From sequence record PV357169.1: a stretch of 43,293 nt of DNA, one strand, 5' to 3'. The translations under genes and the position numbers were made by a program. Each line of letters starts with the position of its first letter. Position 1 is the first letter of the stretch. The stretch is from a phage. Positions 1 to 43,045 of the stretch are shown piece after piece. A model generated the notes under the pieces. It was given only the letters and a program-made list of their open reading frames with translations, did no database searches and had not been told where the DNA came from.

Positions 1-314
1 CACAGCGTGCTTACTCATTACCTGCTGATATTGGTTCTGGGGTTACTGTTGTAAGCCTTAGTCCTGCCGGAGTATTAGTACACTCTGCCGGTAATGTAGA
101 CTTAGGTGCACTTGCTGTTGCTAGTGGGGCCACTTCAGGAACATTAACTATACCTAATGCAGATACAACTAAGTCGTATAGCGTTCGCCCATGGGTAGAT
201 AATCCAGCTACTGTAAACGATACTGCTTCCTGCGCTGCTGGCGTAATTACAGTAAACAGGCCTGTAGCAGTAGGTGTCCAACTTCCATCTACAGTGGAAT
301 ACTTATTGTTTTAA
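1..314 (+). CDS. 3' part of a gene that starts at 43046 and crosses the contig junction (156 aa in total); hypothetical protein downstream of the tailspike
   Basis: Frame from ATG 43046 continues through the 91-nt end overlap to TAA at 312-314; product is Ser/Thr/Val/Ala/Gly-rich; followed directly by a hairpin terminator. Confidence 0.5.
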   Translation, partial: QRAYSLPADIGSGVTVVSLSPAGVLVHSAGNVDLGALAVASGATSGTLTIPNADTTKSYSVRPWVDNPATVNDTASCAAGVITVNRPVAVGVQLPSTVEYLLF

Positions 315-315
315 A

Positions 316-350
316 CAAAGCCCCCCCCCCCCTGTAGTTGGGGGCTTTTC
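316..350 (+). terminator. Hairpin terminator after the last gene (poly-C tract / GGGGG stem followed by CTTTTCCTTTT)
   Basis: C12 run at 321-332, loop TGTAGTT, GGGGG at 340-344, then T-rich tail. Confidence 0.45.
321..332 (+). repeat. Homopolymer tract C12
   Basis: Seen directly; matched by a G13 tract at 562-574 about 230 bp downstream. Confidence 0.9.
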
Positions 351-531
351 CTTTTGTAGGTTAGTATTTATAAGTACTATTCCAGGTGCATATACGAAGT
401 TATCTGCAAGTGGGTACAAGAGAAGCGCCTGGAACATCACAAGGACTTCTCCCCCTGCGCAGGTGTATATCTGAACTCGAAATTTGTTATACTTACCCGA
501 CAGGGTCCCTCACCCTCAACGCGCCCAATTG

Positions 532-544
532 CCCCCATAGGGGG
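532..544 (+). repeat. Perfect palindrome CCCCCATAGGGGG
   Basis: Seen directly; as I recall the same 13-mer lies in the T7 terminal repeat, which suggests proximity to a genome end. Confidence 0.6.
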
Positions 545-561
545 TGTCCTGGGAGAATTTA

Positions 562-574
562 GGGGGGGGGGGGG
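562..574 (+). repeat. Homopolymer tract G13
   Basis: Seen directly. Confidence 0.9.
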
Positions 575-798
575 TATCTAGGTGGCTGGATGTCTGGACG
601 TCTAGATGGCCGCGGGCAGCCTGGGGCCTGCCAGTGCCTCTATGGCGCTCTCAGCGGCTCTCTGCGCTGCGCTAGGGCTATCGCTAGTGCTACCCTACGG
701 CTATGCCTGTGCGTTCACTAGGGCGCTTCCTGTGCGCTCCCTGTGGGCCATAGGGGTGCGCTCTGCCTTGCTTATTTTGTGCAGCCATAGTGCCACAC

Positions 799-820
799 CT
801 AGTGGGCCGTAGTGGGCCGC
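799..820 (+). repeat. Tandem direct repeat, 2 x TAGTGGGCCG
   Basis: Seen directly in the non-coding left-end region. Confidence 0.7.
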
Positions 821-846
821 CCAGTGCGCCGCTAGTGCGTCTATAT

Positions 847-881
847 GCTATCTCTAGAGCTATCTCTAGGGTTATCTCTAG
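847..881 (+). repeat. Tandem direct repeat, 3 x ~12 bp (GCTATCTCTAG / AGCTATCTCTAG / GGTTATCTCTAG)
   Basis: Seen directly. Confidence 0.8.
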
Positions 882-940
882 TGCTTTACATTGTGCCGAT
901 TATATGCTACGCTGCGCGCTCCCCACTAGGGCGCACATCC

Positions 941-980
941 ACTACCCACCACTACCCACCACTATCCACCACTATCCGCT
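941..980 (+). repeat. Tandem direct repeat, 4 x 10 bp (ACTACCCACC x2, ACTATCCACC, ACTATCCGCT)
   Basis: Seen directly. Confidence 0.8.
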
Positions 981-1056
981 ACACTCTGCCGTACTCTGTC
1001 GCTATCCCCAGAGCTATCCCTTACTCTTACTTTCATTCGAAAGCTATTCTGAAATG

Positions 1057-1073
1057 ATGTTACAGGAGTAGGA
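1057..1073 (+). promoter_or_regulatory. Copy 1 of conserved motif ATGTTACAGGAGTAGGA (candidate phage-RNAP promoter or nick-site element)
   Basis: Identical 17-mer also at 21259-21275 and 33408-33424; a variant at 13115-13134. Confidence 0.4.
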
Positions 1074-1494
1074 GGGTTTTAGGGAACTACATACACACTA
1101 CTTACTACTACTCACTAGTATCCCCTAGTAATGCCCTGTATTACGACCGTAGGGAGTAAGCATTACCTACACAGTCACCGCATCACTACGTGTCCTTTCA
1201 CTACGTACGGACACTACGTGACGCTTTATGTAGTACCGTGTAGTGTTGACTAGTAGTGGCTAGTATCGGCTAGTGCTATCCCTATTATGGTTGTAAGTAT
1301 TTGCCCTGCTTACCCTTTTTTGCCCTTAGGGATAAATATTTGCAAAAACTTTAAAATATTACTTGCTTCTTTTGGTTTGTTAGCGCTATAGTTCAATCAC
1401 CGGGAGGCGCTGAGGCGCTGAACGGGGTAGAGTCGGGAGACTCCACCGGATTAAAGCTAAATAGTGTGAAGGGTTAGATACTCAATAAAAAGAG

Positions 1495-1523
1495 TTGACA
1501 CCGCGAGGGACATAAGTTAGATT
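1495..1523 (+). promoter_or_regulatory. Candidate host sigma70 early promoter (TTGACA - 17 bp - TAGATT)
   Basis: Perfect -35 hexamer at 1495-1500, 17-bp spacer, 4/6 match -10 at 1518-1523; rightward, at the start of an ATG-poor leader before the first early gene. Confidence 0.4.
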
Positions 1524-1949
1524 GAATCCCGAAGTAAGAAGACTTCCCGATAGGTGATTAGCATCACGTTAAAAGGCTTCAACGGGGAGGCATCGGAAGA
1601 TGCAAGGTAGGACGCGCAAGGAGGCGCTAACAGGTAGTAAGAAATAAACGCGTGACAAGTTCTGATTCACCTAGTAACTTAGATAGCGAACAACGTAGTA
1701 AGCTGGTTTGCGGGGAGGCCCAGTACCTTAACTGGTACGTTGACGACCAAGCCTAGATAATCAGTTATAAAGAGTAAACGTGCCGGACGTTATCACCGGG
1801 GTTCTGAGGCAAACCTTACTGCCGAGGCGTGAGCAGCACGCTCCTCTGAATCGAGGGAACAAGGCGCGGAGTGTATCCCGCAAAGAGCATATAACATAGC
1901 GTAGCAGTAACAAGGCTGCGCTAGATTATGTTCTCTGAGAGGTAAGAGT

Positions 1950-2147
1950 ATGCGCAAAGCAAAACGCCTAGTATTGCGGCGGAATATGCAGTTATCACTG
2001 AATCCTACCGACGACGTGCCGCTTACTGTGAAGCCCAGCAAACAAGGACTTAGCAGTGAGCACAAGGTGAGGGGAAAGCAAAAACAAAAGGGCGGCAGTA
2101 AACAGCCTAGTGGGTGGCCTACTGTTAACTCCCAATTTGGGCACTAA
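1950..2147 (+). CDS. Small basic early protein (65 aa), hypothetical
   Basis: ATG preceded by GAGAGG 7 nt upstream; first ORF after the long leader. Confidence 0.45.
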   Translation: MRKAKRLVLRRNMQLSLNPTDDVPLTVKPSKQGLSSEHKVRGKQKQKGGSKQPSGWPTVNSQFGH

Positions 2148-2153
2148 TTACAG

Positions 2154-2183
2154 CCTATAGCATCCTATGTGGTGCTATGTGAA
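2154..2183 (+). promoter_or_regulatory. Conserved stem-loop element A (CCTATAGCATCCT...GCTATGTGAA)
   Basis: Stem TAGCA/TGCTA; same flanks and a co-varying stem at 2937-2966 and 9714-9745; 45 nt upstream of the gene at 2226. Confidence 0.45.
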
Positions 2184-2225
2184 GTAATTCGATAAGTAAA
2201 CAACCAACAATCAAAGAGGTGCGTC

Positions 2226-2801
2226 ATGACTCATTCAACTGGTAAAGTATTTAAGCTCACTGCTGCTGCTGGTATCCGCAAAGCACTGTCTGGCGTAGTG
2301 GAAGCAAAGCGCAACATCACTATCAGCGCGCTCTTTCACGGCCTGATTAGCAGCAACGTTTCCTGGGCTACTGAAATGCAGCGCAGCGACGCCGCTGACT
2401 TCGATATGGTGCTGCGTACGCTGTTGCCCATCAAGTTTAACAAGGAGTCCGGCAAGTACGAATTCAATGCTAAGAAGTGCTATGCGTCTGCTGAGAAGCT
2501 GGGTATCGAACTGGACACTATGCGTCTGGATTATAAACAAGCTGACAAGCAAGGCCGTGAAGAGATTGTGACCAGCTTCTATAGCTCCTGTATGGCCCTG
2601 TACGCTGCTGAAGCAGAGCAAGTGAAGAATGATGCCCTTGATGCCGATGCAGTGCGCCTGCAAGCTCTGGGGCGCGTTAAAAACGCCATCAAGAAGGCTA
2701 AAGAAACTGGGGTGAGCGACTCTGATTTGGTATCTATGCTTATCAGTCAGGGCGTGGATGTACGCGCTGTACTGGATGCAACTTTGAAGGTAGCGGCATG
2801 A
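2226..2801 (+). CDS. Early protein, hypothetical (191 aa)
   Basis: Long ORF with AAGAGG RBS 7 nt upstream. Confidence 0.7.
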   Translation: MTHSTGKVFKLTAAAGIRKALSGVVEAKRNITISALFHGLISSNVSWATEMQRSDAADFDMVLRTLLPIKFNKESGKYEFNAKKCYASAEKLGIELDTMRLDYKQADKQGREEIVTSFYSSCMALYAAEAEQVKNDALDADAVRLQALGRVKNAIKKAKETGVSDSDLVSMLISQGVDVRAVLDATLKVAA

Positions 2802-2929
2802 TTTATAAGATTCAAGCTATCAAGTGGTGGGCATTGATTCCGGCAGCTAACGACTCTGACGCCTTTGATGTGCCAACCCGGGGCCGCCATAACAGGTGGC
2901 ACTATAAGGGATTGGGAGAATACGTATAA
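2798..2929 (+). CDS. Small hypothetical protein (43 aa), translationally coupled (ATGA overlap)
   Basis: ATG overlaps the stop of the upstream gene; below the ORF-track size cutoff. Confidence 0.25.
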   Translation: MIYKIQAIKWWALIPAANDSDAFDVPTRGRHNRWHYKGLGEYV

Positions 2930-2936
2930 TGGTAAG

Positions 2937-2966
2937 CCTATAGCGTCCTGCGGGGCGCTATGTGAA
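2937..2966 (+). promoter_or_regulatory. Conserved stem-loop element B (CCTATAGCGTCCT...GCTATGTGAA)
   Basis: Stem ATAGCG/CGCTAT; compensatory change relative to element A. Confidence 0.45.
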
Positions 2967-2989
2967 TACCGTTAACAACGGGGTTTCAA

Positions 2990-3211
2990 ATGAAAGCAAA
3001 GCTAATCTATCCGGGGCATGTACTCTGGCCCGTATGGTGCAATCAAGTGCATACAGAGTATAACTATACTGTGATGATATTCTCTGACCGCGACACCAAT
3101 CAGGAATCCCCTTTAGATCTCGTAGACACCCATACCGAAGCAGCGGCGCGTACTTTGCTGGATGCCGTGAATCTCGGTATTATTACCGACTGGAGACAAC
3201 TTTATGACTAG
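2990..3211 (+). CDS. Early protein, hypothetical (73 aa)
   Basis: ORF directly downstream of stem-loop B; weak RBS. Confidence 0.5.
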   Translation: MKAKLIYPGHVLWPVWCNQVHTEYNYTVMIFSDRDTNQESPLDLVDTHTEAAARTLLDAVNLGIITDWRQLYD

Positions 3212-3467
3212 TATTGTCAATATCATTGTTACCAGCGCCATGCTGGTGCTAGGCAACGATGTGAATAACCCAGTGCCTTATTGCACTGTACACGTCCAAC
3301 AAGGGCAGCAGCAGGAGCAGCAACCACGCCCTGAGTACGACCTCTTTGAGAATCCAGAGGGCGGTTGCAAGGCGTTAGGTATTCGCCTACTTAAGGCGGT
3401 GCGAGAACAAGTGCCTAACGTCGCGGTAACTCTGACCGTGGACGGTGTAAGCAACAACGGTATCTGA
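3204..3467 (+). CDS. Early protein, hypothetical (87 aa, Gln-rich centre)
   Basis: Start overlaps the stop of the upstream gene. Confidence 0.5.
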   Translation: MTSIVNIIVTSAMLVLGNDVNNPVPYCTVHVQQGQQQEQQPRPEYDLFENPEGGCKALGIRLLKAVREQVPNVAVTLTVDGVSNNGI

Positions 3468-3474
3468 GGTGGGT

Positions 3475-3654
3475 ATGTACGGAAAGAATCCTGAAACGCT
3501 GCTGATGCGTAGGCAGCAACCAACAATCGACGGGCTAGCGCGGGAGTACAGCGCAAAAGCAGCGCTGCGCCAGCACTATGAGAAACAAGCAAAGCGGCTG
3601 GGTATGACCCTGCGCGGTTACTGTCACCGTTTTAATGTGCGAGGTGTAATATGA
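3475..3654 (+). CDS. Early protein, hypothetical (~59 aa; GTG start at 3469 also possible)
   Basis: GAGGTGGGT directly upstream of ATG 3475. Confidence 0.45.
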   Translation: MYGKNPETLLMRRQQPTIDGLAREYSAKAALRQHYEKQAKRLGMTLRGYCHRFNVRGVI

Positions 3655-3854
3655 ATGAATTAGTTGCATATGACTTGTACAAGCGCCCGAACGGGTTACT
3701 GTACCGGGTGCCGCTGTATGGTACGCTGAACGAGCACGCTGAACACTATAACAAACCTCTGCAGCGGTGGTTGCAGTCAAGCCACACAGTTGGCGGTATA
3801 GTATCCAGCGACAAGAGCACACTCGTGGCTCGCAATGTAGTATTCAAGGATTAA
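3651..3854 (+). CDS. Early protein, hypothetical (67 aa)
   Basis: ATGA overlap with the upstream gene. Confidence 0.5.
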   Translation: MNELVAYDLYKRPNGLLYRVPLYGTLNEHAEHYNKPLQRWLQSSHTVGGIVSSDKSTLVARNVVFKD

Positions 3855-3856
3855 GT

Positions 3857-4201
3857 ATGCTTACAGTAGACGAAACAGCGCTACTGTGCTGGCGCTTGCT
3901 AGAAACGCAGGGCAAGTGCGGGTGCCCGTGGGAAATATTCAAAGAGGTTCCAGATGAACTCAAGCAAATCGTGCCAGTCGAGCGCCGATTACTCCGCGTT
4001 AGAAAAGAGGGTATTGGCACTGTTCTCACAACCTATCGAGAGTATACAGAGTCTGCCGCGCGCAGATTGCAAGAGCACATTTCGTTCGATGTGGTTGCAG
4101 CACTCCTACGGTACGGGTATCGTGGAGCCTATACAAGATTTAGGGCGGCTGTGCGCTCGTATTATAAGCAGCGACAACTCTCAGCGTGGTATGCACGCTG
4201 A
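3857..4201 (+). CDS. Early protein, hypothetical (114 aa)
   Basis: Internal ATG of track ORF 3767-4201, with AAGGA RBS 8 nt upstream and no overlap with the preceding gene. Confidence 0.5.
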   Translation: MLTVDETALLCWRLLETQGKCGCPWEIFKEVPDELKQIVPVERRLLRVRKEGIGTVLTTYREYTESAARRLQEHISFDVVAALLRYGYRGAYTRFRAAVRSYYKQRQLSAWYAR

Positions 4202-4247
4202 ACTTTTAATGCATGATGAGATACTACTAACACCGGAGACAAAGAAA

Positions 4248-5948
4248 ATGCAAGGGACTAATAAAGTAACTGTAGACGTAAAAGTACCTGCCCACGAGGG
4301 TTGGACCATCAAATTTCCAGAAGGGGCCAATGCTCTTCCACTGAAGGATAGTATGTACTCTTCCGGGGATTACTGGTGCCAACTTCCCTACCTATCAACT
4401 CAAGGCCGTGCGCGCGTGCAAAGTAACAAAACCCGTGCGCTTTTGAATGGCTTTTATATGTTGTCAAGGGTGCTGCCGGGGTACCATGTAGCACTCGGCA
4501 ACTTTACAGCTGCAGGAGAGGAGTTGAGTGTATATACTGGGCCGCTGGGCACGGTTGATGTTAGTGACACTCTCCTGCATAACCTCTTTGGCTGTGCAGG
4601 TACCTGCGACCAAGCATTCGGTTTATCTAGCAGAAACTTCTATGATGGCCCTGACGTAGTTACAGAACGCGTAGTAGAAGCGGTCCAATACTTTACCGGA
4701 TACAAGGTGCACAAGCAGGCTATAGAGTTATTCGAAGAGATTATGCTAGCACCTACGTACTCCCTCCGGCGCAAATACCTTCGTGGGTACAGTGAAATTG
4801 ATGGGGATTACTGGGCAGCAACCTTGCTTATGCAGTTGCACGGATTTGTAGTATCTAGATTTGCAATCCCACTAGGTTTCGGCTTCCGCAACGGTGAGCC
4901 TGTAGTAATGCTGGGGCAGCCGCGATTACACAAAGACTACGCCGCTGTTACTGAGTATCGCTGTGTAGAGATGCGAGTAGGTAAGTGGCTCGCTAACTAT
5001 TACGGCAGCGGTGTAGACTTCAGGGAATGTATTGAAGACCTCAAAGCTATGAATGTGGAGCCTACTACATATCTTTGTAAGACCGAGCGGGAGTGGTACA
5101 ACGCATACGAGAATGGTCCTCGTAGCTGCATGACCGGATACAACTTCGAAGATAGCCCGGTGCGTGTATACGCTACGACTAGTCACGGCTTGCCGGACAA
5201 TAATCTGCGCCTGTTCATCCAGTATACTGGGGAACTTTTTGGTGACGACTTTGAAGTGCACGCCCGTGCTATCGTTAACATCGAAACCAATGAATATGTC
5301 CGTGCATATGGGGATGCTGCGGATGCCATCCTACGTGCTAACGGATATGAGTGCAATACAGACTGCTTAGATGGCGTACTACTGGCGCGTATTCCGCACC
5401 CTGAAAATGAAGGTGCCGTGCTTATGCCGTACTTGGATGGGAACCAAGACGGGGTGGATGAATTGGGCGGGGATGCATTCGTTATCTGCGACTGCTACGA
5501 CTACGAAGCGAAGGACGCTGCTGGTTACATTTGGATTGATGATGGTCACAGTGCTTGTGCAGAGTGTGGGGGACGTTTCGACGAGGATGACATGTACGTA
5601 GCTTGTGACGGTGGTTATGTATGCCCGCACTGCATCGGTGATACTTACGTACAGGTAGTGGGCCGCAGCATAGTGTACCCATCATGGGATTGCTCATGGT
5701 CTGACTACCACGACTCTTGGGTACTTGACCGGGACGTAGAACATTGTGCTGTAGAGGGTACAGTGCATGATGAAGAGCCAATGGCGTGCGTACAAGGGTA
5801 CAATGTTCTGAGTGTGCATGCCGAAGAGCACCCAGTGCACGGTATGATTCTCACGGAGTATGCTGCGTCCATATTGGATGAGCCCTACCTCGGTAATGAA
5901 GAAGCCGAAGAAGACAAAGAAGCTAAAGCAGAACAGGAGGCAGCTTAA
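4248..5948 (+). CDS. Large early protein of unknown function with a Cys-rich C-terminal region (CDCYDY, CAECGG, CPHC), ~566 aa
   Basis: Start chosen at ATG 4248 with GGAGA RBS (track ORF opens at 3954 but overlaps the previous gene); paired Cys motifs suggest metal binding. Confidence 0.55.
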   Translation: MQGTNKVTVDVKVPAHEGWTIKFPEGANALPLKDSMYSSGDYWCQLPYLSTQGRARVQSNKTRALLNGFYMLSRVLPGYHVALGNFTAAGEELSVYTGPLGTVDVSDTLLHNLFGCAGTCDQAFGLSSRNFYDGPDVVTERVVEAVQYFTGYKVHKQAIELFEEIMLAPTYSLRRKYLRGYSEIDGDYWAATLLMQLHGFVVSRFAIPLGFGFRNGEPVVMLGQPRLHKDYAAVTEYRCVEMRVGKWLANYYGSGVDFRECIEDLKAMNVEPTTYLCKTEREWYNAYENGPRSCMTGYNFEDSPVRVYATTSHGLPDNNLRLFIQYTGELFGDDFEVHARAIVNIETNEYVRAYGDAADAILRANGYECNTDCLDGVLLARIPHPENEGAVLMPYLDGNQDGVDELGGDAFVICDCYDYEAKDAAGYIWIDDGHSACAECGGRFDEDDMYVACDGGYVCPHCIGDTYVQVVGRSIVYPSWDCSWSDYHDSWVLDRDVEHCAVEGTVHDEEPMACVQGYNVLSVHAEEHPVHGMILTEYAASILDEPYLGNEEAEEDKEAKAEQEAA

Positions 5949-6982
5949 TGTACGGTGTTGACCTTAAACTACTGACAAAGATACTAACAACGCACCGACC
6001 TAGCTGGGGTAGTACCAAATGGTTTGAACCTCTACTTAGTAGCGCTCTTGCTGGTGCAGAGCACTACGTTAGGGATGCTCATGGTAACTACTTTGTGCTT
6101 ATTGGTGGCTCTGAACAGAGTGATGTAGCATTTACATCACACCTCGACACAGTGGCCCGGCCTGGTAGTGCTGCGCCAGACATTGCAACCACTAACAAGG
6201 GTGTAATGTTCCTGCGGAATCCACAGGTGGCGGATTGTCTAGGTGCAGACTGTGGTGCTGGTATCTACTTGATGCTGGAGATGATTAAGCGGGGAGTACA
6301 TGGACGTTACTGCTTCTTCGTGGATGAAGAGGTAGGCTGTGAAGGCAGCAGTGCATCCGCCAAGGACGACACTGGCTTCTGGACTGGTGTCAAGGCAATG
6401 ATTAGTTTTGACCGCCGAGGTGATGAGATCATTACGCATCAACGATACCAGCGTTGCTGTTCTGATACGTTCGCAAAGGAGCTGGCGGCCCGACTAGGAC
6501 GAACGGATGCGCACTTACAAAAAGGGGTATACACTGACTCTGCTGAGTTCATGCAGATTATCCCCGAATGCACTAACGTAGGTGTAGGGTACATGCACGA
6601 ACATACACCAGATGAGGTGCTGGACCTTAGCATTCTTGGTAGCGTACTGGAGCGCGTACTTAGTCCGGGTACATTCAAGCACCTGCCGATTGAGCGTGAT
6701 CCTAAAGTAGTGGAACCGGATGCGTGGTTATCTGCCTATACGCATCCCCTAACGATGCCTCTGGATGTTCCCCCTGCGGAAGATCCGCATTTACTAGCAG
6801 CGTTTAAGGAGGTGTCACAACTTTCTAAGCAGCAACTGATTAGCTGGGTGCTAGATAACCCAGCAAGAGCGGCGGAATACATCATGGTGTATTCTGATTA
6901 TGGCTTCAAAGAAGAGCTGATTGAACTAGGCACCCGAGTTGTAGAGGACTGGGGTGGATACGATAATATTGTGGAGGGTTGA
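5948..6982 (+). CDS. Putative M20/M28-like zinc metallopeptidase (344 aa)
   Basis: Ordered motifs SHLDTV, GADCGAG, DEEVGCEGS and a later His (GYMHEHT) resemble the metal-ligand pattern of M20-type peptidases; TAATG coupling to the upstream gene. Confidence 0.45.
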   Translation: MYGVDLKLLTKILTTHRPSWGSTKWFEPLLSSALAGAEHYVRDAHGNYFVLIGGSEQSDVAFTSHLDTVARPGSAAPDIATTNKGVMFLRNPQVADCLGADCGAGIYLMLEMIKRGVHGRYCFFVDEEVGCEGSSASAKDDTGFWTGVKAMISFDRRGDEIITHQRYQRCCSDTFAKELAARLGRTDAHLQKGVYTDSAEFMQIIPECTNVGVGYMHEHTPDEVLDLSILGSVLERVLSPGTFKHLPIERDPKVVEPDAWLSAYTHPLTMPLDVPPAEDPHLLAAFKEVSQLSKQQLISWVLDNPARAAEYIMVYSDYGFKEELIELGTRVVEDWGGYDNIVEG

Positions 6983-6984
6983 TT

Positions 6985-7452
6985 ATGTCTAAGTTTAAAG
7001 TTGGTGATAAAGTAGTACGCAAATCACCCGACGACAGCTCGTCGTTTAAGAAGCGCCAAGGGGATTTTGATTACTACACAGTTACAGCTATATCCTCAGG
7101 CGGTCACTGGTTACGGTTGAACAATTGTACTATCGATGGTGACTGGTACCCGTGGTATGCATCTAACTTTGAGCTGTACCAAGAGCCGGACGACGAGCTG
7201 CCACCGGTTCCAGCTAGTGTGGCTTACATGAACTCCAAGCGCGACCGCGGCAACGACCAGCGGCTAGTCCTAGAAAGATGCAGTTGGACTGATGAGAACC
7301 TACTCTACATCGGAATAGTTCCTAAAAAGAACAGCACCCGGGCAGAGCAGGAGATTGGTATTAATATGAGTCCTGATGCAGCCCTGCAACTAGCACACGA
7401 CCTTCGTCGCATGGCTATGGATATCAAACGTAAGGGGAAAGCAAATGCATAA
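6985..7452 (+). CDS. Hypothetical protein (155 aa)
   Basis: GGAGGG RBS 6 nt upstream of ATG 6985 (track starts at TTG 6979). Confidence 0.6.
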   Translation: MSKFKVGDKVVRKSPDDSSSFKKRQGDFDYYTVTAISSGGHWLRLNNCTIDGDWYPWYASNFELYQEPDDELPPVPASVAYMNSKRDRGNDQRLVLERCSWTDENLLYIGIVPKKNSTRAEQEIGINMSPDAALQLAHDLRRMAMDIKRKGKANA

Positions 7453-7648
7453 AATTATCACGTACAAAATGCCGCCTAAGAGTATTGTGGTTGGCATTCC
7501 GTTCACTTGGGGATCATGCAGCTTTTGGGTTATAAAGGTAGAGGGTGGCTACATATACCGTCTGGACGATGGACGGAAGGTGGATGTACCCGAAAGAGAC
7601 ATTTTATTGTGTGGAATAGTATACGCTAACAGAATCGAGATTAAGTAA
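7445..7648 (+). CDS. Hypothetical protein (67 aa)
   Basis: AAGGGGA RBS; overlapping stop/start with neighbours. Confidence 0.5.
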   Translation: MHKIITYKMPPKSIVVGIPFTWGSCSFWVIKVEGGYIYRLDDGRKVDVPERDILLCGIVYANRIEIK

Positions 7649-8439
7649 TGGACCAGCCCTGGCTTAGAGCGTGCAAGCGCCTGGCCGTGGGGCAGAGGGC
7701 ACGCTTTCGGTGCTGCGGCAGGGACTCCGCCGGGGTGCTCTATAATAACCCGGATGCCTGGGAATACTATTGCCACCGCTGCAAACAGGTAGGCAAGGAG
7801 CGCAAGCAGTACCAGCGCATACAGTTACAGGAAGAGCCGAGGGTGCAGCCCTCTGCACCTGCAGATGCAATTTGCATTAGCCAAGCGCCTGCAGAAACGC
7901 AGAGTTTTATTTACGGATTCCTTGCTTCAAAGGGAATCATGCCTGAAATGGTGGGGGATGCAGAATGGAGCAAAGAGAAACAGCGGATAATCTTCCGTGT
8001 CGGAAGCGCTGCTCTGGGCCGTGCAGTACATGCTCGGCAGCAACCGAAGTGGGTAATGTACGGCCAGCCAATAGCTTTCGCTGTCGCGGAACCTGCCGTA
8101 GCACCGGCTGTAGCTGCGGGCGCTCCTCTAAAGGTCGTGCTCACAGAGGACTTACTCTCAGCCCTGAAGATACAGCACGCAGTTACGAGCTACAGTGCGT
8201 TGAACGTGCAGGCTATAGCTATGCTGGGTACACGCTTGCCCACGCAGCTAAGGGCCTGGCTGATTCAGAATCGCCCGGAAGTGATTCTAATGTTGGACAA
8301 TGACCCGGCAGGACATGCTGGGGTAGCGGCAACACGCCGGGCACTGCGCCCGTTCATGCAGTGCCGAGAACACTACTTCGCTGCGGATCCTAAGGACGCA
8401 GAAATCAAAGAGATACTGGAGGCATTAACTTGGACTTAA
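7648..8439 (+). CDS. DNA primase (zinc-ribbon + TOPRIM)
   Basis: CCGRDSAG...YYCHRCKQ zinc-binding pattern; acidic TOPRIM motifs LTEDLL and MLDNDPAG. Confidence 0.7.
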   Translation: MDQPWLRACKRLAVGQRARFRCCGRDSAGVLYNNPDAWEYYCHRCKQVGKERKQYQRIQLQEEPRVQPSAPADAICISQAPAETQSFIYGFLASKGIMPEMVGDAEWSKEKQRIIFRVGSAALGRAVHARQQPKWVMYGQPIAFAVAEPAVAPAVAAGAPLKVVLTEDLLSALKIQHAVTSYSALNVQAIAMLGTRLPTQLRAWLIQNRPEVILMLDNDPAGHAGVAATRRALRPFMQCREHYFAADPKDAEIKEILEALTWT

Positions 8440-9710
8440 TAGTTGTGCGTGCAATGTGCACGCAGAAGGTCTGGAACCGACTGCGAGAGCAGATACCCAA
8501 GTCTATGCTTGCGCCGGACACCTCGAACCTGCTGGACTGGGTAGGGCTGTACTGGAACACGTACCCAGAGCACCAAGAGGTGCAGTGGGATGCGATGCAG
8601 AGTATGCTCAACCTCCGGGCCGGGCATCTATCCCGTGAAGAGCGGGTGATTATGGATGAGCTTATGCGGGGAGTACAAGCCGTACCACAGGATTCTGTGG
8701 TGGGGATTGTGCAGACCCTGAATGAGTTGGCATACAGCGGAGAGGTTGCAGCGCTCACGCAGCGCTACCAAGACGGTGAGGAGGTTGATTATCTACTGGA
8801 GATGAAGCACCTCCAGCGCAAGTACGGGGATGGTGCTGCTGTTCATGATTCGCTACTAGAGTGGGAGAGCGGAAGTGTTGATGAGATACTTGCCGCGACT
8901 GATGAAAGTGGTGGTCTTAAACTGGGCGTATTTGAGCAACTCTCTAATAGCATCCGCGGGCTTCGCGGTGGTGATTGTATTGCTGTGGCTGCCCCTGTTG
9001 ATTCTGGTAAAACTAGCCTACTCGCTGCTATTGCTGTGGACTTTGCTAAGCAGATGCAGCAGCAACCGGAGGTGTACGGGGATCGTCCGATTCTATGGCT
9101 GGTTAATGAAGGCCCGGCGACGCGCACTGTGCCGAGGGTATACCAAGCGGCGCTGCATTGGACTCTGGCTGAGATTAAGGACAGGCACAGTAAGCAAGAG
9201 TTTGTGCCGGCCTATTTGGAGAAAGTAGGTAGGGCTGACCGCATCCGTATCAAGGCGGCACACTCTCTTACTATGGCTCAAATCTCTACGCTAATGGAGG
9301 AGATGCGCCCGGCGGTAATCATCATAGATATGGTAGCTAACATCCGTGGTGGTACGATGGAGAGCGAACACCAGAACCTAGAGGCGAAGTGGCAGGAGCT
9401 GCGAATCCTGGGGTGTGAGAATGACTGTGCCGTTATTGGTACTATGCAGCTTTCACTCGAAGGTTATAACCTGCTGTTTCCACCGCTCACAGCAATGAAG
9501 CAGAGTAAGATTGGTGTGCAAGGTGCTTTGGATTTAGCAATTATGATGGGGTGCTTGGACAGGAACGAGCAGCCGCATATGCAAAACATTCGTGGTATCA
9601 GTACGCCGAAGAATAAGATGGCGCTATCGGGTAAGGAATCGCTACTGCAATTCGAGGTAGCATTCGACCCAGGTAGATGCCGATTTAACGAAGGGCAGAT
9701 TAACAAGTGA
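8430..9710 (+). CDS. Replicative DNA helicase (DnaB/T7 gp4 C-terminal-like)
   Basis: Walker A AAPVDSGKTSLL; directly follows the primase; probable TTG start with GGAGG RBS. Confidence 0.75.
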   Translation: MDLIVVRAMCTQKVWNRLREQIPKSMLAPDTSNLLDWVGLYWNTYPEHQEVQWDAMQSMLNLRAGHLSREERVIMDELMRGVQAVPQDSVVGIVQTLNELAYSGEVAALTQRYQDGEEVDYLLEMKHLQRKYGDGAAVHDSLLEWESGSVDEILAATDESGGLKLGVFEQLSNSIRGLRGGDCIAVAAPVDSGKTSLLAAIAVDFAKQMQQQPEVYGDRPILWLVNEGPATRTVPRVYQAALHWTLAEIKDRHSKQEFVPAYLEKVGRADRIRIKAAHSLTMAQISTLMEEMRPAVIIIDMVANIRGGTMESEHQNLEAKWQELRILGCENDCAVIGTMQLSLEGYNLLFPPLTAMKQSKIGVQGALDLAIMMGCLDRNEQPHMQNIRGISTPKNKMALSGKESLLQFEVAFDPGRCRFNEGQINK

Positions 9711-9713
9711 CTT

Positions 9714-9745
9714 CCCTAGCGCCTTCCTAGAGGGCGCTATGTAGG
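9714..9745 (+). promoter_or_regulatory. Conserved stem-loop element C (CCCTAGCGCC...GGCGCTATGTAGG)
   Basis: 7-bp stem TAGCGCC/GGCGCTA; related to elements A and B; sits just after the helicase gene. Confidence 0.4.
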
Positions 9746-9772
9746 TACACAGATGATGGATGGAGATATACT

Positions 9773-9871
9773 ATGTTTATACTGACAGACTGGGAGTGCA
9801 AGCACTGCGGGGCAAGGTTGACATTTATAGGTGGTATGTGCATCCAGTGTGGGAGAAGGCAGAATGCTTAA
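9773..9871 (+). CDS. Small zinc-ribbon-like protein (32 aa; CKHC...CIQC)
   Basis: GGAG RBS 8 nt upstream; two CxxC pairs; below the ORF-track cutoff. Confidence 0.35.
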   Translation: MFILTDWECKHCGARLTFIGGMCIQCGRRQNA

Positions 9872-10019
9872 ACCGTCCGACATTAACTATCTCGACGAAG
9901 AGGTAATTAAGGCGTACGCTGCATCTGTGGGTACTTTCAGCATACGGCCCGTGCTAATTAGCAGCCGGCTGATTGTGCACTTGGCTGTCAATAAGGCGCG
10001 GAGGATTAATTGGAGATGA
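9864..10019 (+). CDS. Hypothetical protein (51 aa)
   Basis: Internal ATG of track ORF 9831-10019 with GGAGAAGG RBS. Confidence 0.35.
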   Translation: MLKPSDINYLDEEVIKAYAASVGTFSIRPVLISSRLIVHLAVNKARRINWR

Positions 10020-10465
10020 CAGATTGTATCGACCACGGGCAGAAGGGAAGCACTTGCCGAGGAAAGTGCGCTGGATATGGCCGCTCCAGATTTGATGGAG
10101 AGACAACTGGAAGCCACCGCAAAGCGTATTGTATAGCCCACAACTTGAAGCTGAGTGATATCGCGGGACTTGTAGTCCGGCATTCGTGTGACAATCCTCG
10201 GTGCATAAATCCGGAGCACCTGCTACTAGGGACTTCTAGTGATAATATGCAGGACCGAAATAAAGGTGCGCGTAATTTGCTGGGCAGCCGCAACCCTGCT
10301 GCCAGACTTACCCCAGAAGACGTGCACAGTATACGAGAAGCATATGCTGGCGGTGAGACCCAGGTATCTATAGCGAGACGCTTCGGGATAAGTCAAGGAT
10401 ACATATCTAATATCATAAAGGGGAGGGTATGGAATGAGCAGAAGCATCCTGATAACGGATTATGA
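10010..10465 (+). CDS. HNH homing endonuclease (copy 1)
   Basis: HSCDNPRCINPEHLLLGT HNH core; paralog of 13155-13589; 3' end overlaps the DNA polymerase start by 32 nt. Confidence 0.8.
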   Translation: MEMTDCIDHGQKGSTCRGKCAGYGRSRFDGETTGSHRKAYCIAHNLKLSDIAGLVVRHSCDNPRCINPEHLLLGTSSDNMQDRNKGARNLLGSRNPAARLTPEDVHSIREAYAGGETQVSIARRFGISQGYISNIIKGRVWNEQKHPDNGL

Positions 10466-12773
10466 GACGCAAAATCACCCATATTACGGTAGTGTTGCTT
10501 CCCCGTACTGTCCGGATAATTACATCGTAGAATCAGCGTGGCGTATTGACCGCACGCACGATGACGGTACGGTAGAAGTAGGCCCCGTAGAGAGTGTACG
10601 GTATAACAGTCGCGCGCACTTTGAAGCGGCACCTGTATCAGAATGGCTCCCAATACCAGCTGACTGTTGGCTGATTGTGGCCCACAACGCCGCATATGAG
10701 ATTAGCTGGTTCCTAACCTTTGCGCGCGCCGAGTTTGAGGCCTTCCTAAAGCGGGGAGGTCGCGTATTCTGTACGATGCATTCTGAGTACATCGCCTCGG
10801 ACTTTCAGAGTATGTATCCGTCACTGGACGAGACAGCTCCTAAGTACGGCGGTACGCACAAAGTAGACGGTGTTAAGATTCTATGGGAGCAAGGTGTATT
10901 AACCTCCCAGATCGACCCTATACTATTGCACGACTACCTAGTTAACGGGGATATACCGAACACGGCCCTGTGCTTCTACGGCCAGTGCGGTATCTTTGCA
11001 GAGCGCAACCAAATGCAGTACGTATGGGAGCGCATGGATGCCTTACTGGCCTGGGCCTACTGCGAATGGTTCGGTCTGTTCGTGAATATGCCGATTGCTC
11101 GCAAGAACCAAGAAGAGCAGGAACAGCGTATACTGGAGATTAAGAAGGAGCTGCAGCAGTATATCCCCAAGGACTTGCCGGAGACGCTAGATTTCAACTT
11201 CGGTTCTGACTTTCATATGTCTGCGCTGGTGTATGGCGGCCCTATCAAGTACCGCAAGAAGGTGCCCTACGACCCGCCGCAATACGTCAAGGCGGACTAC
11301 TGGCAAGTAGGCGACACTTGGGTTGCTGTGGATGATATGCCCGCTCCCCCTGGGGCGACTACATACAAGGCCGGGAAGAACAAGGGCTTACCAAAAGTCT
11401 TCCGCATAGATACAGCGGAAGAGAAACTCAAATGGGAAGAGGACCTCTACTTCTGCCCAGGCCTGGTTAACATCCAAGAACTGCCCGAGGTACTCCGAGA
11501 GAAGTATGCTGAGCGTGGAGAGTTCAGGCAAGCCCGGAATCTGCAGGATGGGACACCAATCTACAGCACCAGTACTGATGCTATGGAAGCGCTAGCCCGT
11601 CACGGGTTCGAGTTCTGTCGATTGGTGAACGAGCTAGGTGCTCTGGAGAAGGACACAGGAACCTACTATCTACGAACGGAGTACAACGAAGATGGGTCAG
11701 TTAAAAAGACCTCGGGCATGCTTCAATACGTCATACCTCAGAACCCTGATGGTTCAGGTATTATCCACCACCGTCTTAACACCTGTGCCACCGTCACCGG
11801 GCGACTGTCAGGTTCTAACCCGAATCTCCAGAATCTACCGCGCGATGGGACGAGCCGGGTTAAACAGATGTTCACCTCTCGTTTCGGAGAATCTGGTCGC
11901 ATCACTGAGGTTGACTATTCGGCCCTGGAAGTGGTTATGTCTTGTGTTCACACTGGAGACCTTAAACTACTGGGGCTACTGCAGTCCGGCACGGACATGC
12001 ACTGTTACCGACTAGCATTTAAGGAGAACAAAACCTACGAAGAGATGTACGACCTGTGCCATAACGCTGACGGGCCAGACTACAAGTACTGGAAGCAGCA
12101 GCGTACGGACATTAAGCCCCCTAGTTTTGCTGCGCAGTATGGTGCTACGGCTAAGGGTATCGCCTTTGCTACCGGATGTACCGTAGAGTATGCACAGGCG
12201 TTCCTGGATAACGAGGCTAAGCTGTTCCCAACAACCATAGGATTCCGCGCTGTTGTCAAGGAAGAAGTAGAGCGTACCGGGGCAGCTGGACGCATTTACC
12301 GGGAGCAAGCTGATGATGGTAGTTATCGTATCTACCGAATTGGTACCTGGACCAGCCCAGCAGGTGCCCGCTACAGCTTCCGTCAGAAGGAGCAGTGGAA
12401 GGAAGTAGTCCCTGGCCAGCGCAAGCAGAAGGTGATGGACTACAAGGAAACCGAGATGGCTAACTACTGGTGTCAAGGTGAGGCGTTCTTCTTGATGGCA
12501 GTCGCAGCCGGTATGGTTCTGCGTGCGATGCTGGCACGTGACTGGTTCGACAATCAGGTGTGCTTGATTACGAACGTACACGATGCATTGTATCTTGACA
12601 GTGCCAATCCAGAGGTAGGCAGAGAAGCGAGCCTGTTAGTTAAGCAGTGCATGGAAGACGCACCTAAGCGTATCCACCAGCTATGGCCTAACTACGGTAT
12701 CATTGGGCAGGTCCCGTTCCCAGCGGAAGCTGAAATGGGTACAAGCATGTACAGTAAGGAGAAAGTAGAATGA
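10434..12773 (+). CDS. DNA polymerase, family A (T7 gp5-like)
   Basis: Motif A EVDYSALE, motif B K...FAAQYG, motif C VHDALYLD; N-terminal exonuclease-like region. Confidence 0.9.
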   Translation: MSRSILITDYETQNHPYYGSVASPYCPDNYIVESAWRIDRTHDDGTVEVGPVESVRYNSRAHFEAAPVSEWLPIPADCWLIVAHNAAYEISWFLTFARAEFEAFLKRGGRVFCTMHSEYIASDFQSMYPSLDETAPKYGGTHKVDGVKILWEQGVLTSQIDPILLHDYLVNGDIPNTALCFYGQCGIFAERNQMQYVWERMDALLAWAYCEWFGLFVNMPIARKNQEEQEQRILEIKKELQQYIPKDLPETLDFNFGSDFHMSALVYGGPIKYRKKVPYDPPQYVKADYWQVGDTWVAVDDMPAPPGATTYKAGKNKGLPKVFRIDTAEEKLKWEEDLYFCPGLVNIQELPEVLREKYAERGEFRQARNLQDGTPIYSTSTDAMEALARHGFEFCRLVNELGALEKDTGTYYLRTEYNEDGSVKKTSGMLQYVIPQNPDGSGIIHHRLNTCATVTGRLSGSNPNLQNLPRDGTSRVKQMFTSRFGESGRITEVDYSALEVVMSCVHTGDLKLLGLLQSGTDMHCYRLAFKENKTYEEMYDLCHNADGPDYKYWKQQRTDIKPPSFAAQYGATAKGIAFATGCTVEYAQAFLDNEAKLFPTTIGFRAVVKEEVERTGAAGRIYREQADDGSYRIYRIGTWTSPAGARYSFRQKEQWKEVVPGQRKQKVMDYKETEMANYWCQGEAFFLMAVAAGMVLRAMLARDWFDNQVCLITNVHDALYLDSANPEVGREASLLVKQCMEDAPKRIHQLWPNYGIIGQVPFPAEAEMGTSMYSKEKVE

Positions 12774-21252: not shown

Positions 21253-21258
21253 AATTTA

Positions 21259-21275
21259 ATGTTACAGGAGTAGGA
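21259..21275 (+). promoter_or_regulatory. Copy 2 of conserved motif ATGTTACAGGAGTAGGA, abutting the first post-RNAP gene
   Basis: Exact 17-mer (20-mer TTAATGTTACAGGAGTAGGA shared with copy 3); at the replication/structural module boundary. Confidence 0.45.
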
Positions 21276-32099: not shown

Positions 32100-35000
32100 A
32101 TGGCTCAGTTTCTGAACCAAGAACCGAATCCACAGGAAAAGGATTCTGCTAAGGGCGCAACACTTAAACCTGCGCCTGCGCGTATAGATTGGAACGATGC
32201 GGGTGATGACGGCTTGAATGCACTGGAGCGTGCCTCCTTACTAGCACAGGCCAAGACTCCTGCTACTACAGCTGCAGAGAGCTTTGCGTCTGGTATGGGT
32301 AATAGCATCATAGCTGCAGCTATCCGTAAAGCCTCCGCCCCGGCATTTGTCCCAGAGCAGGGTTTTGATGCTAAGAAGCAATTAAGCACTGATTCACGGG
32401 CTAAACTCTATACCCCTAATCAAGAAGAAATTGATTACTTACATGGAGCAGTGTCTCTGGAGGACTATAACTACCGCATACAGCAGATGCTTGATCAGCG
32501 TCATCGCGATCGCTTAATGGCTGACAACACAATAGCTGGGTTCGCTGGGGCTATAGCAGGTGACTCTCCATTTCTCCTAGCTCCGATGTCTGCGGCAGGT
32601 ATCGCTGGTCGGGCTGGCTTAGCAGTGCGCACTGCTATCCGCGCAGCGGATGTAGGTACGGCTGTTTATGCACAGGACCAACTGGGTCAGTCTGCGGCAG
32701 TTACTGCTCTTGTAGCAGGTGTAGCTGGTCTAGACCAACTCTGGGATATCCGTAGGGCTGTACGCGCATCTACGGCAGCTGCGTCAACTACAAGAGCTGC
32801 TGAGACCACCCCTAATGCTGCTACGGCAACTTCCCGCACTGCTCCGGAAGAAGTAGCAACAAGTCGCAATGTGGTAGATTCCCCTGCTGGCCCGTCTAAT
32901 GCGCAAGCTGATAGTGCTGCGGTTGCTAAAACCACTGACGGTTTACCAGAAGGTTTAAGCTTGAACGTGCTGGATGATGTAGAGCACCACGCTTACTCTG
33001 GTGTACGCGTACCTGGTATAGAGGTAGAAGTAAATCGCGGAGATAAGTTGGTTGGTGTTGTGCAGGCTTATCGTGTAGGTGATGATTTACAAGTAGCACA
33101 TGCCTGGGTTGATAAATCCCTGCGTGGCAAGGGAGTAGGTGCGAGCATGTACAAAGCACTAGTTAAGCGCGCTACTGATGCAGGATATGGTAACTTGTTG
33201 TCTGATAACTCAGTAACTGCGTCTGCTCAGCAGATGTGGCGCAAACTTGGTGCTACCAAAACCAAAGATTTTAAAGAACTAACGGACGGTATTGAAGGGC
33301 AGCGTTATGCAGTCTCTGCGGATGAAAAGTCCCCACTCTTTACTCTAGACTTGAAACGTCCTGTGTTTGACCCAGATGCGCCTACAACTCGTACAGCGAG
33401 GGATGTTAATGTTACAGGAGTAGGAGAGGGGGAAGAAATCCTCACCAAAGCACTGGATGAACCGATAAAAGTCCTTAGAAACAACACTACTACTGTTAAC
33501 ATTAAAGCGCAGGACGTAGTTCGATTCCTAAAGACCTCTGAGCATTTATCTAAGGGTCAGAAGGCTATCCTGGACACCCTGGGCGATGCAGTACAGGACA
33601 TTGATTTTAAGTTGGTGGCAGGCTCTTCTAACCGTAGCCACTACAGCTTTCCACTGGTATCAAGAACTGATAGGGGTTTTGTATCTTTACGTGCCCCTAA
33701 GAAAGCTAATGGAAGTACTTGGACAACTGTAGGCGACGCCCTACGTGCCATGGACGCCGATACTAGTCGAGTAGCAGTGCACGAGCTGATTCACGCTGCC
33801 ACTACTAGGGCCCTTAAGCGGAATCCTGAAATTGCTAGTAAGCTGGAAGAGGTGCGCGCTGCAATAGCAGCTGATTCAACCCTCAGTGATAAGCTTAAGT
33901 ACTACGCAAGCGATGTGCACGAGATGCTAGCTGGACTAGGTGATAGCCCTGAGTGGGTGGAGTATCTCTCTAAAACTCAATCTCCTACTGGTAGGAGTAT
34001 GCTCCGCCAGATTGGTGAGTACATCATGAATGCCCTGGGGATTCGCACCAAGGGGTCCGCTCTGGAGGATGTTCTGGACGCGTACGAGGATGCTGTCAAG
34101 TGGACAGCAAAGGACTACGCAGAACAAGTTCAGAGCTTCCGCAGCGAATCTTTCCAGGACCTAGCGGATACATCGGTTAAGAATGAGGCCCTGAAAGCTC
34201 AGACTATGATGGACACGGCCAAGCGTAAGTTAGCCACTATGTTCTCCCTGTATGATAACATCGCAGAGGGTAGCGAGGACCTGGCACGCTTACTGGTATC
34301 TGATGCTACTGCTGTAGGCGGTCGTAAACCGTCTGTGGTGGACTTCAAGCGTAACCTTACGTTGGAGATGGATGCTAGTGCCAGTGTAGTTGAGGACGCT
34401 ATACTTGGTGCCCTCAAGGCCAAAGGTGTAGGTTTCATAGACCGCTTCTTCCACCGTAGCAACTTCCGAGCAGCTCGTGCTGACTTAGAAGATCGCTTGG
34501 GCCGTTACCTGGACTCTGCGTACAGCGCTGAGGTTAATGGACGCCCTGTACCTCTGCCGGACTCTGACTTGGTTCCGCTAGTAGAGGCGTACCGCAACTC
34601 CGGCTGGGCCAGTAAGTGGCACGATCACATGACTGCTGCCGGACTGGTGGATGACGGTACTCTGATTAAATCGGACTATTACTTCCCTCGCCAGTACAGC
34701 TACGATAAGATGCGCCAAGGTATTGCAAATGGTCGCTCCCTGGATAATTATCGGGATCTGTTCCGTCAGGCATTGCGTGACGTGTACCCGTCTATGGAAC
34801 CCGAAGTTGTCCAGCGCGTTGCTAAGGAGATGGTTGACGGTATCTATAACGGACGCTCCTCGGCTTCTGGTCCTATGTGGAAGCAACTCATCAATGGTAT
34901 GGGTAATGATGAAGTAGTTATGGCCATGCGTAATGCTGGCGTAGACGAGAGTGCAATCCAGAGTTTCTTGGCAGGTAATGTCCGAGAATCTGGCGCTACC

Positions 35001-43024: not shown

Positions 43025-43045
43025 TAGAAAAACAATGAGGTTTAT

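Follow-up and report, generated by a model that had tools for sequence, protein, structure and literature searches.

The phage genome deposited as sequence record PV357169.1, analyzed here as one stretch of 43,293 nucleotides (the window, whose coordinates are used throughout), carries arrays of short tandem repeats at positions 799-980, in what an initial annotation called its non-coding left-end region. It can be stated with high confidence that these arrays are the cleanest stretches of a larger non-coding zone of degenerate 10-12 bp direct repeats, which covers about 700 bp (~590-1290) and, again with high confidence, reaches from inside the direct terminal repeat (DTR) to the early promoters. 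Their identification as the positional counterpart of the arrays that follow the DTR in phages T7 and T3 is made with the same high confidence. As to what the arrays do, the favored reading is that they are binding sites used in concatemer-end processing and packaging, a tentative interpretation to which a probability of roughly 0.4 is assigned.

All four arrays listed in the initial annotation are present. Tandem Repeats Finder recovers 2.0 copies of TAGTGGGCCG at 800-819 (100% match), 3.2 copies of GCTATCTCTAGA with a period of 12 at 847-885 (85% match) and 3.6 copies of CCACTACCCA at 939-974 (96% match), the last of which can be read directly as 4 x ACTAYCCRCC at 941-980. The remaining array, 3 x CACTACGT(G/A), lies on the plus strand at 1184-1220, with units starting at 1184, 1199 and 1212 and thus spaced by 15 and 13 bp. 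The first array is in fact part of a series of five xAGTG units, at 789, 801, 811, 823 and 834. Chance expectation was obtained by running Tandem Repeats Finder on 300 dinucleotide-preserving shuffles and recording coverage by arrays with a period of 8-14. Between 799 and 980, 95 bases lie in such arrays (shuffles: mean 0.8, maximum 45), and between 508 and 1300 the figure is 236 (shuffles: mean 2.4, maximum 51); none of the 300 shuffles reaches the observed value for either interval. The latter interval also holds 9 of the 35 tandem-repeat rows found in the whole 43 kb window. The repeats are confirmed as real and non-random.

By its sequence, the window is a Drulisvirus (KP34-like, T7-type, Autographiviridae) phage of Klebsiella. 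Its left-end DNA matches 244 phage records, nearly all of them Drulisvirus phages of Klebsiella, and the hallmarks of a T7-type genome are found together: an inferred DTR, a gp18/gp19-type terminase and a single-subunit RNA polymerase. The polymerase gene lies at 18784-21252 (Pfam RNA_pol), the T7 gp18-type small terminase gene at 37366-37668 (Pfam DNA_Packaging_2) and the T7-type large terminase gene at 37668-39524 (Pfam T7 terminase RNaseH-like domain). The first 91 bases of the window (1-91) are identical to its last 91 (43203-43293), which indicates that the window is a circularized assembly, and the true genome ends appear to be internal to it, at ~508 and 763. The DTR, present as one collapsed copy at 508-763, was mapped by a three-way alignment of the window with both ends of phage KpV41. 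Its limits, drawn by homology to relatives with annotated ends, are a start at ~508 (CCTCACCCTCAAC...) and an inner boundary that reads ...CCATAGGGGTGCGCTC followed by TGCC. The annotated DTRs of four relatives (KpV41, 1-214; AttikonH2, 1-214; SAA231, 1-267; KP34, 1-216) all begin with CCTCACCCT and finish with CCATAGGGGTGCGCTC. For another Drulisvirus phage, fHe-Kpn01, the ends and a 222-bp terminal repeat have been determined experimentally (PMC7291057). The term "left-end region" is therefore right with regard to the end concerned, but the physical end is internal (~508) and the window is circularly permuted; similarly, the arrays do adjoin the DTR, but the repeat zone already begins inside it.

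The zone as a whole has a periodicity of its own. Self-similarity of 508-1298 is highest at lags of 10 and 12 (0.376 and 0.344), compared with ~0.245 at lags 10-11 and 0.27 at lag 12 in coding sequence (maximum at lag 10 over 51 chunks, 0.285); for 30 non-redundant Drulisvirus left ends the mean values at lags 10, 11 and 12 are 0.34, 0.32 and 0.32. The coding genome has a period-3 signal only, and this signal is missing from the repeat zone. The tetranucleotide CTAG is about sevenfold denser in the zone than in the phage's own coding genome, and five of the six copies of TATCYCTA in the genome fall within 849-1334.

Two types of core sequence, GCTATCC(CT) and TAGTG/CACTA, make up the zone. A logo built from 152 distinct instances of the GCTATCC unit reads G-CTATC-C-C-T, with variable sequence on either side. 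The positions beside CTATC that the choice of core did not force (G-1, C+5, C+6 and T+7) are conserved, with an information content of 0.75-1.27, in contrast to spacers of 3-5 nt that are unconserved (0.1-0.4) and that take up the differences in unit length. Conservation of the core positions and the flanks of CTATC, and not of the spacers, points to constraint on the cores. Consecutive CTATC cores are mostly 10-12 bp apart, with extra peaks at 21 and 23 bp, and GCTATC is essentially confined to the plus strand (279 CTATC versus 16 GATAG in the 30 phages). Consecutive TAGTG cores are 10-13 bp apart and occur in both orientations, one of which is preferred in each block. From the DTR to a conserved non-repetitive block (886-936), a phage carries on average across the genus 4.8 TAGTG and 0.64 CACTA; past a phage promoter at 1055-1070, the corresponding means are 6.0 ACTA versus 2.2 TAGT in the first half of the segment and 4.3 TAGT versus 0.9 ACTA in the second half. 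TAGTG thus prevails before the conserved block; beyond the block, and again past the promoter, CACTA/ACTA is the main orientation, until TAGT takes over once more. Cores are also found inside the DTR, with CTATC at 678 and AGTG at 633 and 686.

The relatives that were compared comprise 50 IMG/VR contigs, retrieved by an exact match to the 26-mer at 911-936, and the four phages with annotated ends; conserved landmarks were located in each. All 36 distinct (non-redundant) relatives carry the same unit types in the same places, in differing copy number. The absence from relatives that the initial annotation had set beforehand as refuting its proposal is therefore not the case; conservation extends to the unit types and their placement, but copy number is hypervariable and the arrays as such are not conserved. 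The DTR is 192-338 bp long among distinct versions (up to 341 bp over all loci), its length differences being accounted for by degenerate 10-12 bp repeats that lie on the plus strand at 647-745 in the window (tandem-repeat rows 647-666, 670-704 and 706-745). The interval from the DTR to the conserved block measures 74-177 bp, that from the block to the promoter 28-89 bp in steps of 10 bp, with the window longest, and that between the promoter and the landmark after it 191-284 bp. Quantization of these lengths is strong (Rayleigh R 0.66-0.81, against a 95% null of ~0.4), and the best periods of the four segments, in order, are 10.4, 11.1, 10.0 and 11.0 bp. The period follows the size of the local units, and that of T7 is 13 bp, which argues for gain and loss of whole units and not for helical phasing; a helical-phase constraint between landmarks was accordingly rejected, the best period varying with unit size with no single helical value. 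Nor do the segments compensate for one another, the variance of the summed lengths (2913) exceeding the sum of the variances (2224), and a constraint on the length of the leader as a whole was rejected on that ground. Measured from the left end, the earliest promoter-like landmark, a conserved TACTTGCTTCTTTTGGTT element preceding the first consensus promoter, is 759-959 bp away. The GCTATCTCTAG variant occupies all copies only in the window and in loci L012, L013 and L027; together with the 4-copy ACTAYCCRCC run, the longest observed, this homogenized variant bears the mark of a recent lineage-specific expansion. About 8 of the loci extend as far as the terminase gene, and 2 of these have the unit in its TCTCTAG form as opposed to TCCCTAG.

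Many relatives carry further arrays at the right end, before the DTR, made of GTATCTCTA and GCTGCTTGGG. These include two to four copies each of GTATCTCTAA and of GCTGCTTGGG in loci L005, L007, L022, L030, L035, L037, L042 and others, and they lie up to 170 nt before the DTR, just ahead of a conserved right-end element. Their core, TATCTCTA, is also the core of the array at 847-885. No right-end arrays occur in the corresponding interval of this phage (349-507).

The favored reading takes the GCTATCC(CT) and TAGTG/CACTA cores to be low-specificity sites, present in many copies and in a fixed orientation within each block, on which a phage end-processing factor would load; the leading candidate is the gp18-type small terminase acting with the large terminase. 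Loading would label the concatemer junction, and on the arrival of packaging the junction would be cut and its single terminal repeat duplicated. Packaging of T7 runs from right to left, and a motor travelling in that direction would meet the arrays just before the terminal cut. Copy number, it is proposed, could drift freely because function would need an array and not an exact number of units, and replication slippage or unequal recombination would generate the 10-11 bp length steps seen among relatives. This reading is favored by the T7-type context and common layout, by cores that are better conserved than spacers, by unit types that occur in every relative with a localized core and, on average, a set orientation per segment, by the same core on both sides of the DTR in many relatives, and by similar arrays that are widespread in the family, with plain 10-13 bp periodicity at the left ends of T7, T3 and KP34 and lower peaks in SP6 and phiKMV.

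Several observations weigh against it. The initial annotation described the T7 arrays as implicated in packaging, but as far as the literature found goes this implication stems from their position only, and that literature yielded no experiment demonstrating a packaging role for them. Copy number and spacers are hypervariable, and the 4-copy ACTAYCCRCC run and the GCTATCTCTAG variant look like the signature of slippage-driven turnover. The lack of right-end arrays in this phage means that arrays at that end are at least dispensable. The core motifs have no sequence in common with the units of T7, T3, SP6 or phiKMV. Finally, Drulisvirus genomes are ~75-80% identical (PMC4411677), and the conservation of unit types within the genus could be plain shared ancestry. 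A more specific proposal is that the succession of TAGTG, GCTATCC, conserved block, CACTA and GCTATCC ahead of the promoter constitutes the recognition architecture of a T7-type terminase, comparable to a pac or cos region, in which many weak oriented sites would load a gp18-type small terminase or a polymerase-terminase complex. Loading would set both the place of the junction cut and the duplication of the terminal repeat, for which an array would be needed and a fixed copy number would not. In this fuller form the proposal is unlikely.

The chief rival holds that the arrays are neutral by-products of an untranscribed and weakly constrained spacer, a hotspot for slippage and unequal exchange with no sequence-specific function, perhaps created by strand exchange and additional DNA synthesis during duplication of the terminal repeat. 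Unit-sized variation in copy number in every segment, lineage-specific expansions with homogenized variants, segments that vary without length compensation and the loose distance between the left end and TACTTGCTTCTTTTGGTT are all in keeping with such a history. Neutral turnover alone does not readily explain why core positions are conserved and spacers are not, why the unit family and (on average) the orientation within each segment hold across the genus, why relatives have the same core on either side of the DTR, or why analogous arrays occupy the same place in four subfamilies, T7 and T3 even sharing a CTAAAG core; the neutral explanation is a serious rival, though on balance doubtful. A role at entry or in early regulation, in which the leader serves as a length spacer or offers a site for a host or virion protein that protects the leading end or keeps it in place up to the onset of transcription, is distinctly less probable. 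On this view the zone would be the leading 0.8-1 kb that enters ahead of the rest, which host RNA polymerase then pulls in as in T7. In keeping with it, the zone coincides exactly with the untranscribed leader, the first consensus-like sigma-70 promoter stands 988 bp from the left end, and CTAG, a tetranucleotide rare in enterobacterial DNA, is enriched in the zone. The loose and uncompensated leader length does not suit a spacer, arrays are found inside the DTR too and relatives have them at the right end, the last part to enter, and no known host-factor site was recognized.

A replication function, with the arrays and the left-end promoter forming a secondary origin or with primase sites setting the last lagging-strand primer, is very unlikely. 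The T7 promoter phiOL is associated with a secondary origin, and a validated phage promoter likewise sits in the middle of the zone; GCTATC keeps strictly to one strand, as would be expected of sites for an enzyme with strand specificity, for instance primase. Against this, no AT-rich unwinding element lies directly past the promoter and TAGTG/CACTA is used in both orientations. Least likely among the functional alternatives is that the arrays are a series of pause sites for the phage RNA polymerase, GCTATC(C/T)CT being in KP34-type phages what ATCTGTT, the class II pause signal linked to concatemer processing, is in T7. The sequence CTATCTGTT sits exactly at the inner terminal-repeat boundary in T7, T3 and SP6, and the class II signal works in the non-template strand in an orientation-dependent manner; GCTATC units likewise lie on the plus strand, which is the non-template strand for rightward transcription, and share CTATC with the signal. 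However, ATCTGTT is absent near the DTR (seven copies occur in the window, none of them in 1-11,000), the class II signal tolerates no base changes with T7 RNA polymerase, and a terminator (317-348) precedes the DTR. Moreover, the CCTAAAG arrays of T7 are distinct from the T7 pause site, so that by analogy the arrays described here would not be a pause element. That the region encodes protein can practically be dismissed. Two mechanical open reading frames (ORFs) of 93 and 70 amino acids, at 790-1071 and 845-1057, overlap the arrays, and small "hypothetical protein" genes are called in the homologous stretch of AttikonH2, but KpV41, SAA231 and KP34 have no annotation there and the zone is without the period-3 signal of the coding genome. 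Indel steps of 10-11 bp, which are not multiples of three, rule out both ORFs as coding, and no reading frame survives among the relatives.

A few other possibilities were tried and rejected. Hairpin or cruciform formation by the inverted TAGTG/CACTA blocks is contradicted by single-stranded DNA folding that is no better than that of shuffles (z-scores of -0.09 for 780-985, -0.58 for 1080-1290 and +0.11 for 508-800). The only match to a known RNA family in Rfam is to ctRNA_p42d, at 18.7 bits against a gathering score of 50, and it lies on the upstream terminator. Units containing GGGG have too few G-runs for a G-quadruplex, with two GGG in 800-819 as judged by eye. Artefactual repeats of ~79 bp near the terminal repeats have been described in przondoviruses (PMC10438801). 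An assembly artefact is unlikely in the present case, given that the arrays measure 20-40 bp and are found again in dozens of genomes and contigs from separate depositions, among them records whose ends are annotated.

The repeat zone is embedded in an ordered series of features. The terminator of the last gene (317-348) is followed by unique right-end DNA at 349-507, of which the last ~55 nt are conserved in all relatives with an upstream flank. This conserved unique element (452-507, plus strand, ending ...GTGTATATCTGAACTCGAAATTTGTTATACTTACCCGACAGGGT) lies just before the DTR and is also found at the right end of KpV41; upstream of it everything is variable among relatives. By its position, it is a candidate right-end packaging signal. 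Within the DTR, the palindrome CCCCCATAGGGGG was found by direct reading at 532-544, which is 25-37 nt from the left end, and may be a shared end-processing signal; a shorter copy, CCATAGGGGTG, lies at 748-758, 16 nt before the inner DTR boundary. The left end is spanned by a perfect inverted repeat of 13 nt, made up of a C12 run in the last gene's terminator (321-333) and a G13 run in the DTR (561-573). Among relatives the G-run varies, being GGAGGGGGTGGGG in KpV41 and G14 in AttikonH2, and the run lengths are possibly affected by sequencing error.

Directly past the DTR, the conserved inner-boundary element TGCCTTGCTTATTTTGTGC (764-782, plus strand) serves as a landmark and is present in 48 of the 55 left ends scanned, the misses being mostly loci that end short at this point. 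Its core, CTTGCTTATTTTGTG, is doubled in some relatives (L003, L017, L022 and L054), and in L041 the second copy is slightly diverged. The element may be the functional counterpart of the class II pause signal at the T7, T3 and SP6 boundary. It is followed on the plus strand by the five xAGTG units, each a TAGTG core with a G/C-rich tail, spaced 10-12 bp apart at 786-845 and including the 2 x TAGTGGGCCG array. Next come 3.2 copies of the 12-bp unit GCTATCTCTAGN at 847-885, a lineage variant of the genus-wide GCTATCCCTAG, which comprise three GCTATCTCTAG units (the T-variant). The conserved non-repetitive block GCTTTACATTGTGCCGATTATATGCTACGCTGCGCGCTCCCCACTAGGGCGCAC (886-936, plus strand) is a landmark in most scanned left ends. 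Beyond it, the 4 x ACTAYCCRCC array gives way to degenerate CACTC/GCTATCC units, together covering 941-1020 on the plus strand, with GCTATCC at 1001 and 1013.

The strong promoter for the phage RNA polymerase, TGATGTTACAGGAGTA (1055-1070, plus strand), is the counterpart of T7 phiOL and is identical to promoter S2 of KP34 (nt 475-490), from which the purified KP34 RNA polymerase transcribes in vitro (Lu et al. 2019, PMC6834552). Further copies of the promoter, T(A/G)ATGTTACAGGAGTA, occur at 21257-21272, just past the RNA polymerase gene, and at 33407-33422, both at positions homologous to those in KP34; the latter, the third copy, lies within a 1420-amino-acid ORF (32100-36362). Downstream of the left-end promoter, units of the ACTAC/CACTA type fill 1086-1139 on the plus strand, and the unit kinds found across 1086-1285 are ACTAC, CACTACGT, TAGTAGTGG and GCTATCC. 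A triple CACTNCGT, related to the 3 x CACTACGT array, is found in KpV41, SAA231 and AttikonH2. The zone closes with TAGTA/TAGTG units (GGCTAGTAGTGGCTAGTATCGGCTAGTG) and then GCTATCCCTA at 1230-1285 on the plus strand (tandem-repeat row 1250-1274).

The first consensus-like host sigma-70 promoter, TTGACA-17-TAGATT, lies on the plus strand at 1495-1523 and is homologous to annotated promoters of KP34 (931-959) and KpV74 (939-968). It is the sole hit of a consensus scan, which found no host sigma-70 promoter in 764-1300. No Chi sites occur within 12 kb of the left end. The ~550 bp at 1400-1950 have no plus-strand ORF of at least 40 amino acids and are followed by a conserved ORF of 65 amino acids (1950-2147). 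This stretch contains several promoter-like hexamer pairs, including those at 1495-1523 and ~1651-1680, of which the second is homologous to a second annotated promoter of KpV74, as well as GC-rich inverted repeats, and it may be a structured early leader.

Two side observations were also made. The interval ~393-470 is homologous to near-right-end sequence of some relatives (L011, L016, L025 and L028), and in BUCT86, BUCT631 and AttikonH4 the homologous stretch is annotated as an HNH endonuclease gene. The interval may be the 3' end of such a gene, and that the window has only this remnant past the tail-spike terminator suggests a deletion; other relatives have short repeat arrays there instead. 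Separately, Escherichia phage ukendt (L056, NC_052661), a Phapecoctavirus of 150 kb, carries at 1501-1537 a 37-nt copy of the first bases of the Drulisvirus DTR that is 94.6% identical. The copy lies downstream of a tail-spike gene, and ~400 nt further on (1890-1960) a gene start resembles positions 43018-43080 of the window. From these sequences, the copy looks like the scar of a tail-spike cassette exchange that carried a Drulisvirus genome end with it.

Phages of the genus Drulisvirus are widely isolated for use in phage therapy against Klebsiella, and more and more of them are being rebuilt by synthesis. A map that separates the DTR from conserved unique signals, the validated promoter and variable repeats tells annotators and engineers what may be altered. 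No other part of the genome varies as much in length as the repeat zone, which is likely to give rise to errors in assembly and annotation (spurious small ORFs are present there in several records) and is also a natural strain marker. Recognition of the concatemer junction by T7-type terminases is poorly defined, and the unit types and orientations conserved in this well-sampled genus provide concrete candidate sites. Should the arrays prove neutral, they would point to a hotspot of mutation associated with terminal-repeat duplication.

The closest comparison is with T7 and T3, and in position the analogy drawn by the initial annotation holds up: the arrays lie between the DTR and a phiOL-like promoter, starting 23-37 bp past the inner DTR boundary and filling the gap from 763 to the phage promoter at 1055. 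The order of terminal repeat, arrays, phiOL-type phage promoter and host promoters is common to all three. The T7 record has CCTAAAG arrays at 174-245 and 282-340 (period 13), phiOL at 405 and A1 at 498, after a terminal repeat that we take to be 1-160 (160 bp); the arrays flanking it were reportedly named SRL and SRR by Dunn and Studier in 1983. In the T3 annotation, the terminal repeat is 1-231 and phiOL lies at 366-388. The T7 record starts TCTCAC..., with CCCCCATAGGGGG at 26-38 and ATCTGTT at 161-167, and the window resembles it in a left end of the form YCTCAC... (CCTCAC... in the window) and in an identical 13-nt palindrome at +25 to +37. T3, SP6, phiKMV and KP34 all begin with pyrimidine-rich sequence, followed by a motif resembling CCCCATAGGG at +22 to +43 and then by repeat units; CCCCATAG-type motifs also occur in T3, SP6 and phiKMV at about the distance of the palindrome from the end. 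T7, T3 and KP34 show a clear self-similarity peak at 10-13 bp; in SP6 and phiKMV this peak is weaker.

A short core in one orientation with variable spacers, repeated with a period of 13 bp in T7 and 12-13 bp in T3 and found inside the terminal repeat as well, is a further likeness. In T7, heptamers (CCTAAAG and related) stand on both sides of the terminal repeat, with weaker CCTAAGG/CCTAAAG units before the right one. The window differs in that its cores are GCTATCC and TAGTG/CACTA, with no CCTAAAG-type unit; in that there are two core families, one of them used in both orientations in separate blocks, with a period of 10-12 bp; and in that the arrays run beyond the phage promoter to ~1290 and are not matched by an array at the right end. 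The relation to T7 is thus positional and architectural and is not one of sequence homology. For the T3-like Yersinia phages fPS-7 to fPS-89, it has been reported that 10- and 12-bp repeats alter the length of the terminal repeat (PMC5923468, Table 4), that the first phage promoter is separated from the terminal repeat by 11-34 repeats, that poly-C homopolymer tracts occur in the terminal repeat and that variability is greatest near both repeats; these repeats are treated there as microevolution, and no function is proposed for them (PMC5923468). The Yersinia phages belong to a different subfamily, Studiervirinae, and have other unit sequences.

Outside this family, the R-sites of lambda cosB and the pacL and pacR boxes of SPP1 are recognition arrays for small terminases, and a mechanism of this kind is the one favored for the repeat zone. 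The zone resembles them in having several short sites near the terminase cut site (the nearest unit is 23 bp from the inner DTR boundary and others are inside the DTR) and on both sides of a unique conserved segment. It departs from them in that the flanked block (886-936) is 120-170 bp from the nearest genome end and not at the cut, and in that the copies are far more numerous and far more variable. A likeness to iterons is seen in direct repeats in one orientation at roughly helical spacing, but the units measure 10-12 bp as opposed to ~17-22 bp, their copy number is unconserved, and neither an initiator gene nor an AT-rich unwinding element is found next to them. The class II pause signal, which has CTATC in common with the GCTATCYCT unit through its boundary sequence, is a single orientation-dependent site at the inner terminal-repeat boundary of T7, T3 and SP6. 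No description of the Drulisvirus repeat zone was found in the KP34, Kp34likevirus or fHe-Kpn01 papers. Collectively, these comparisons indicate that the array phenomenon is already known in kind from T7, T3 and the Yersinia phages, and that the repeat zone described here is its Drulisvirus counterpart.

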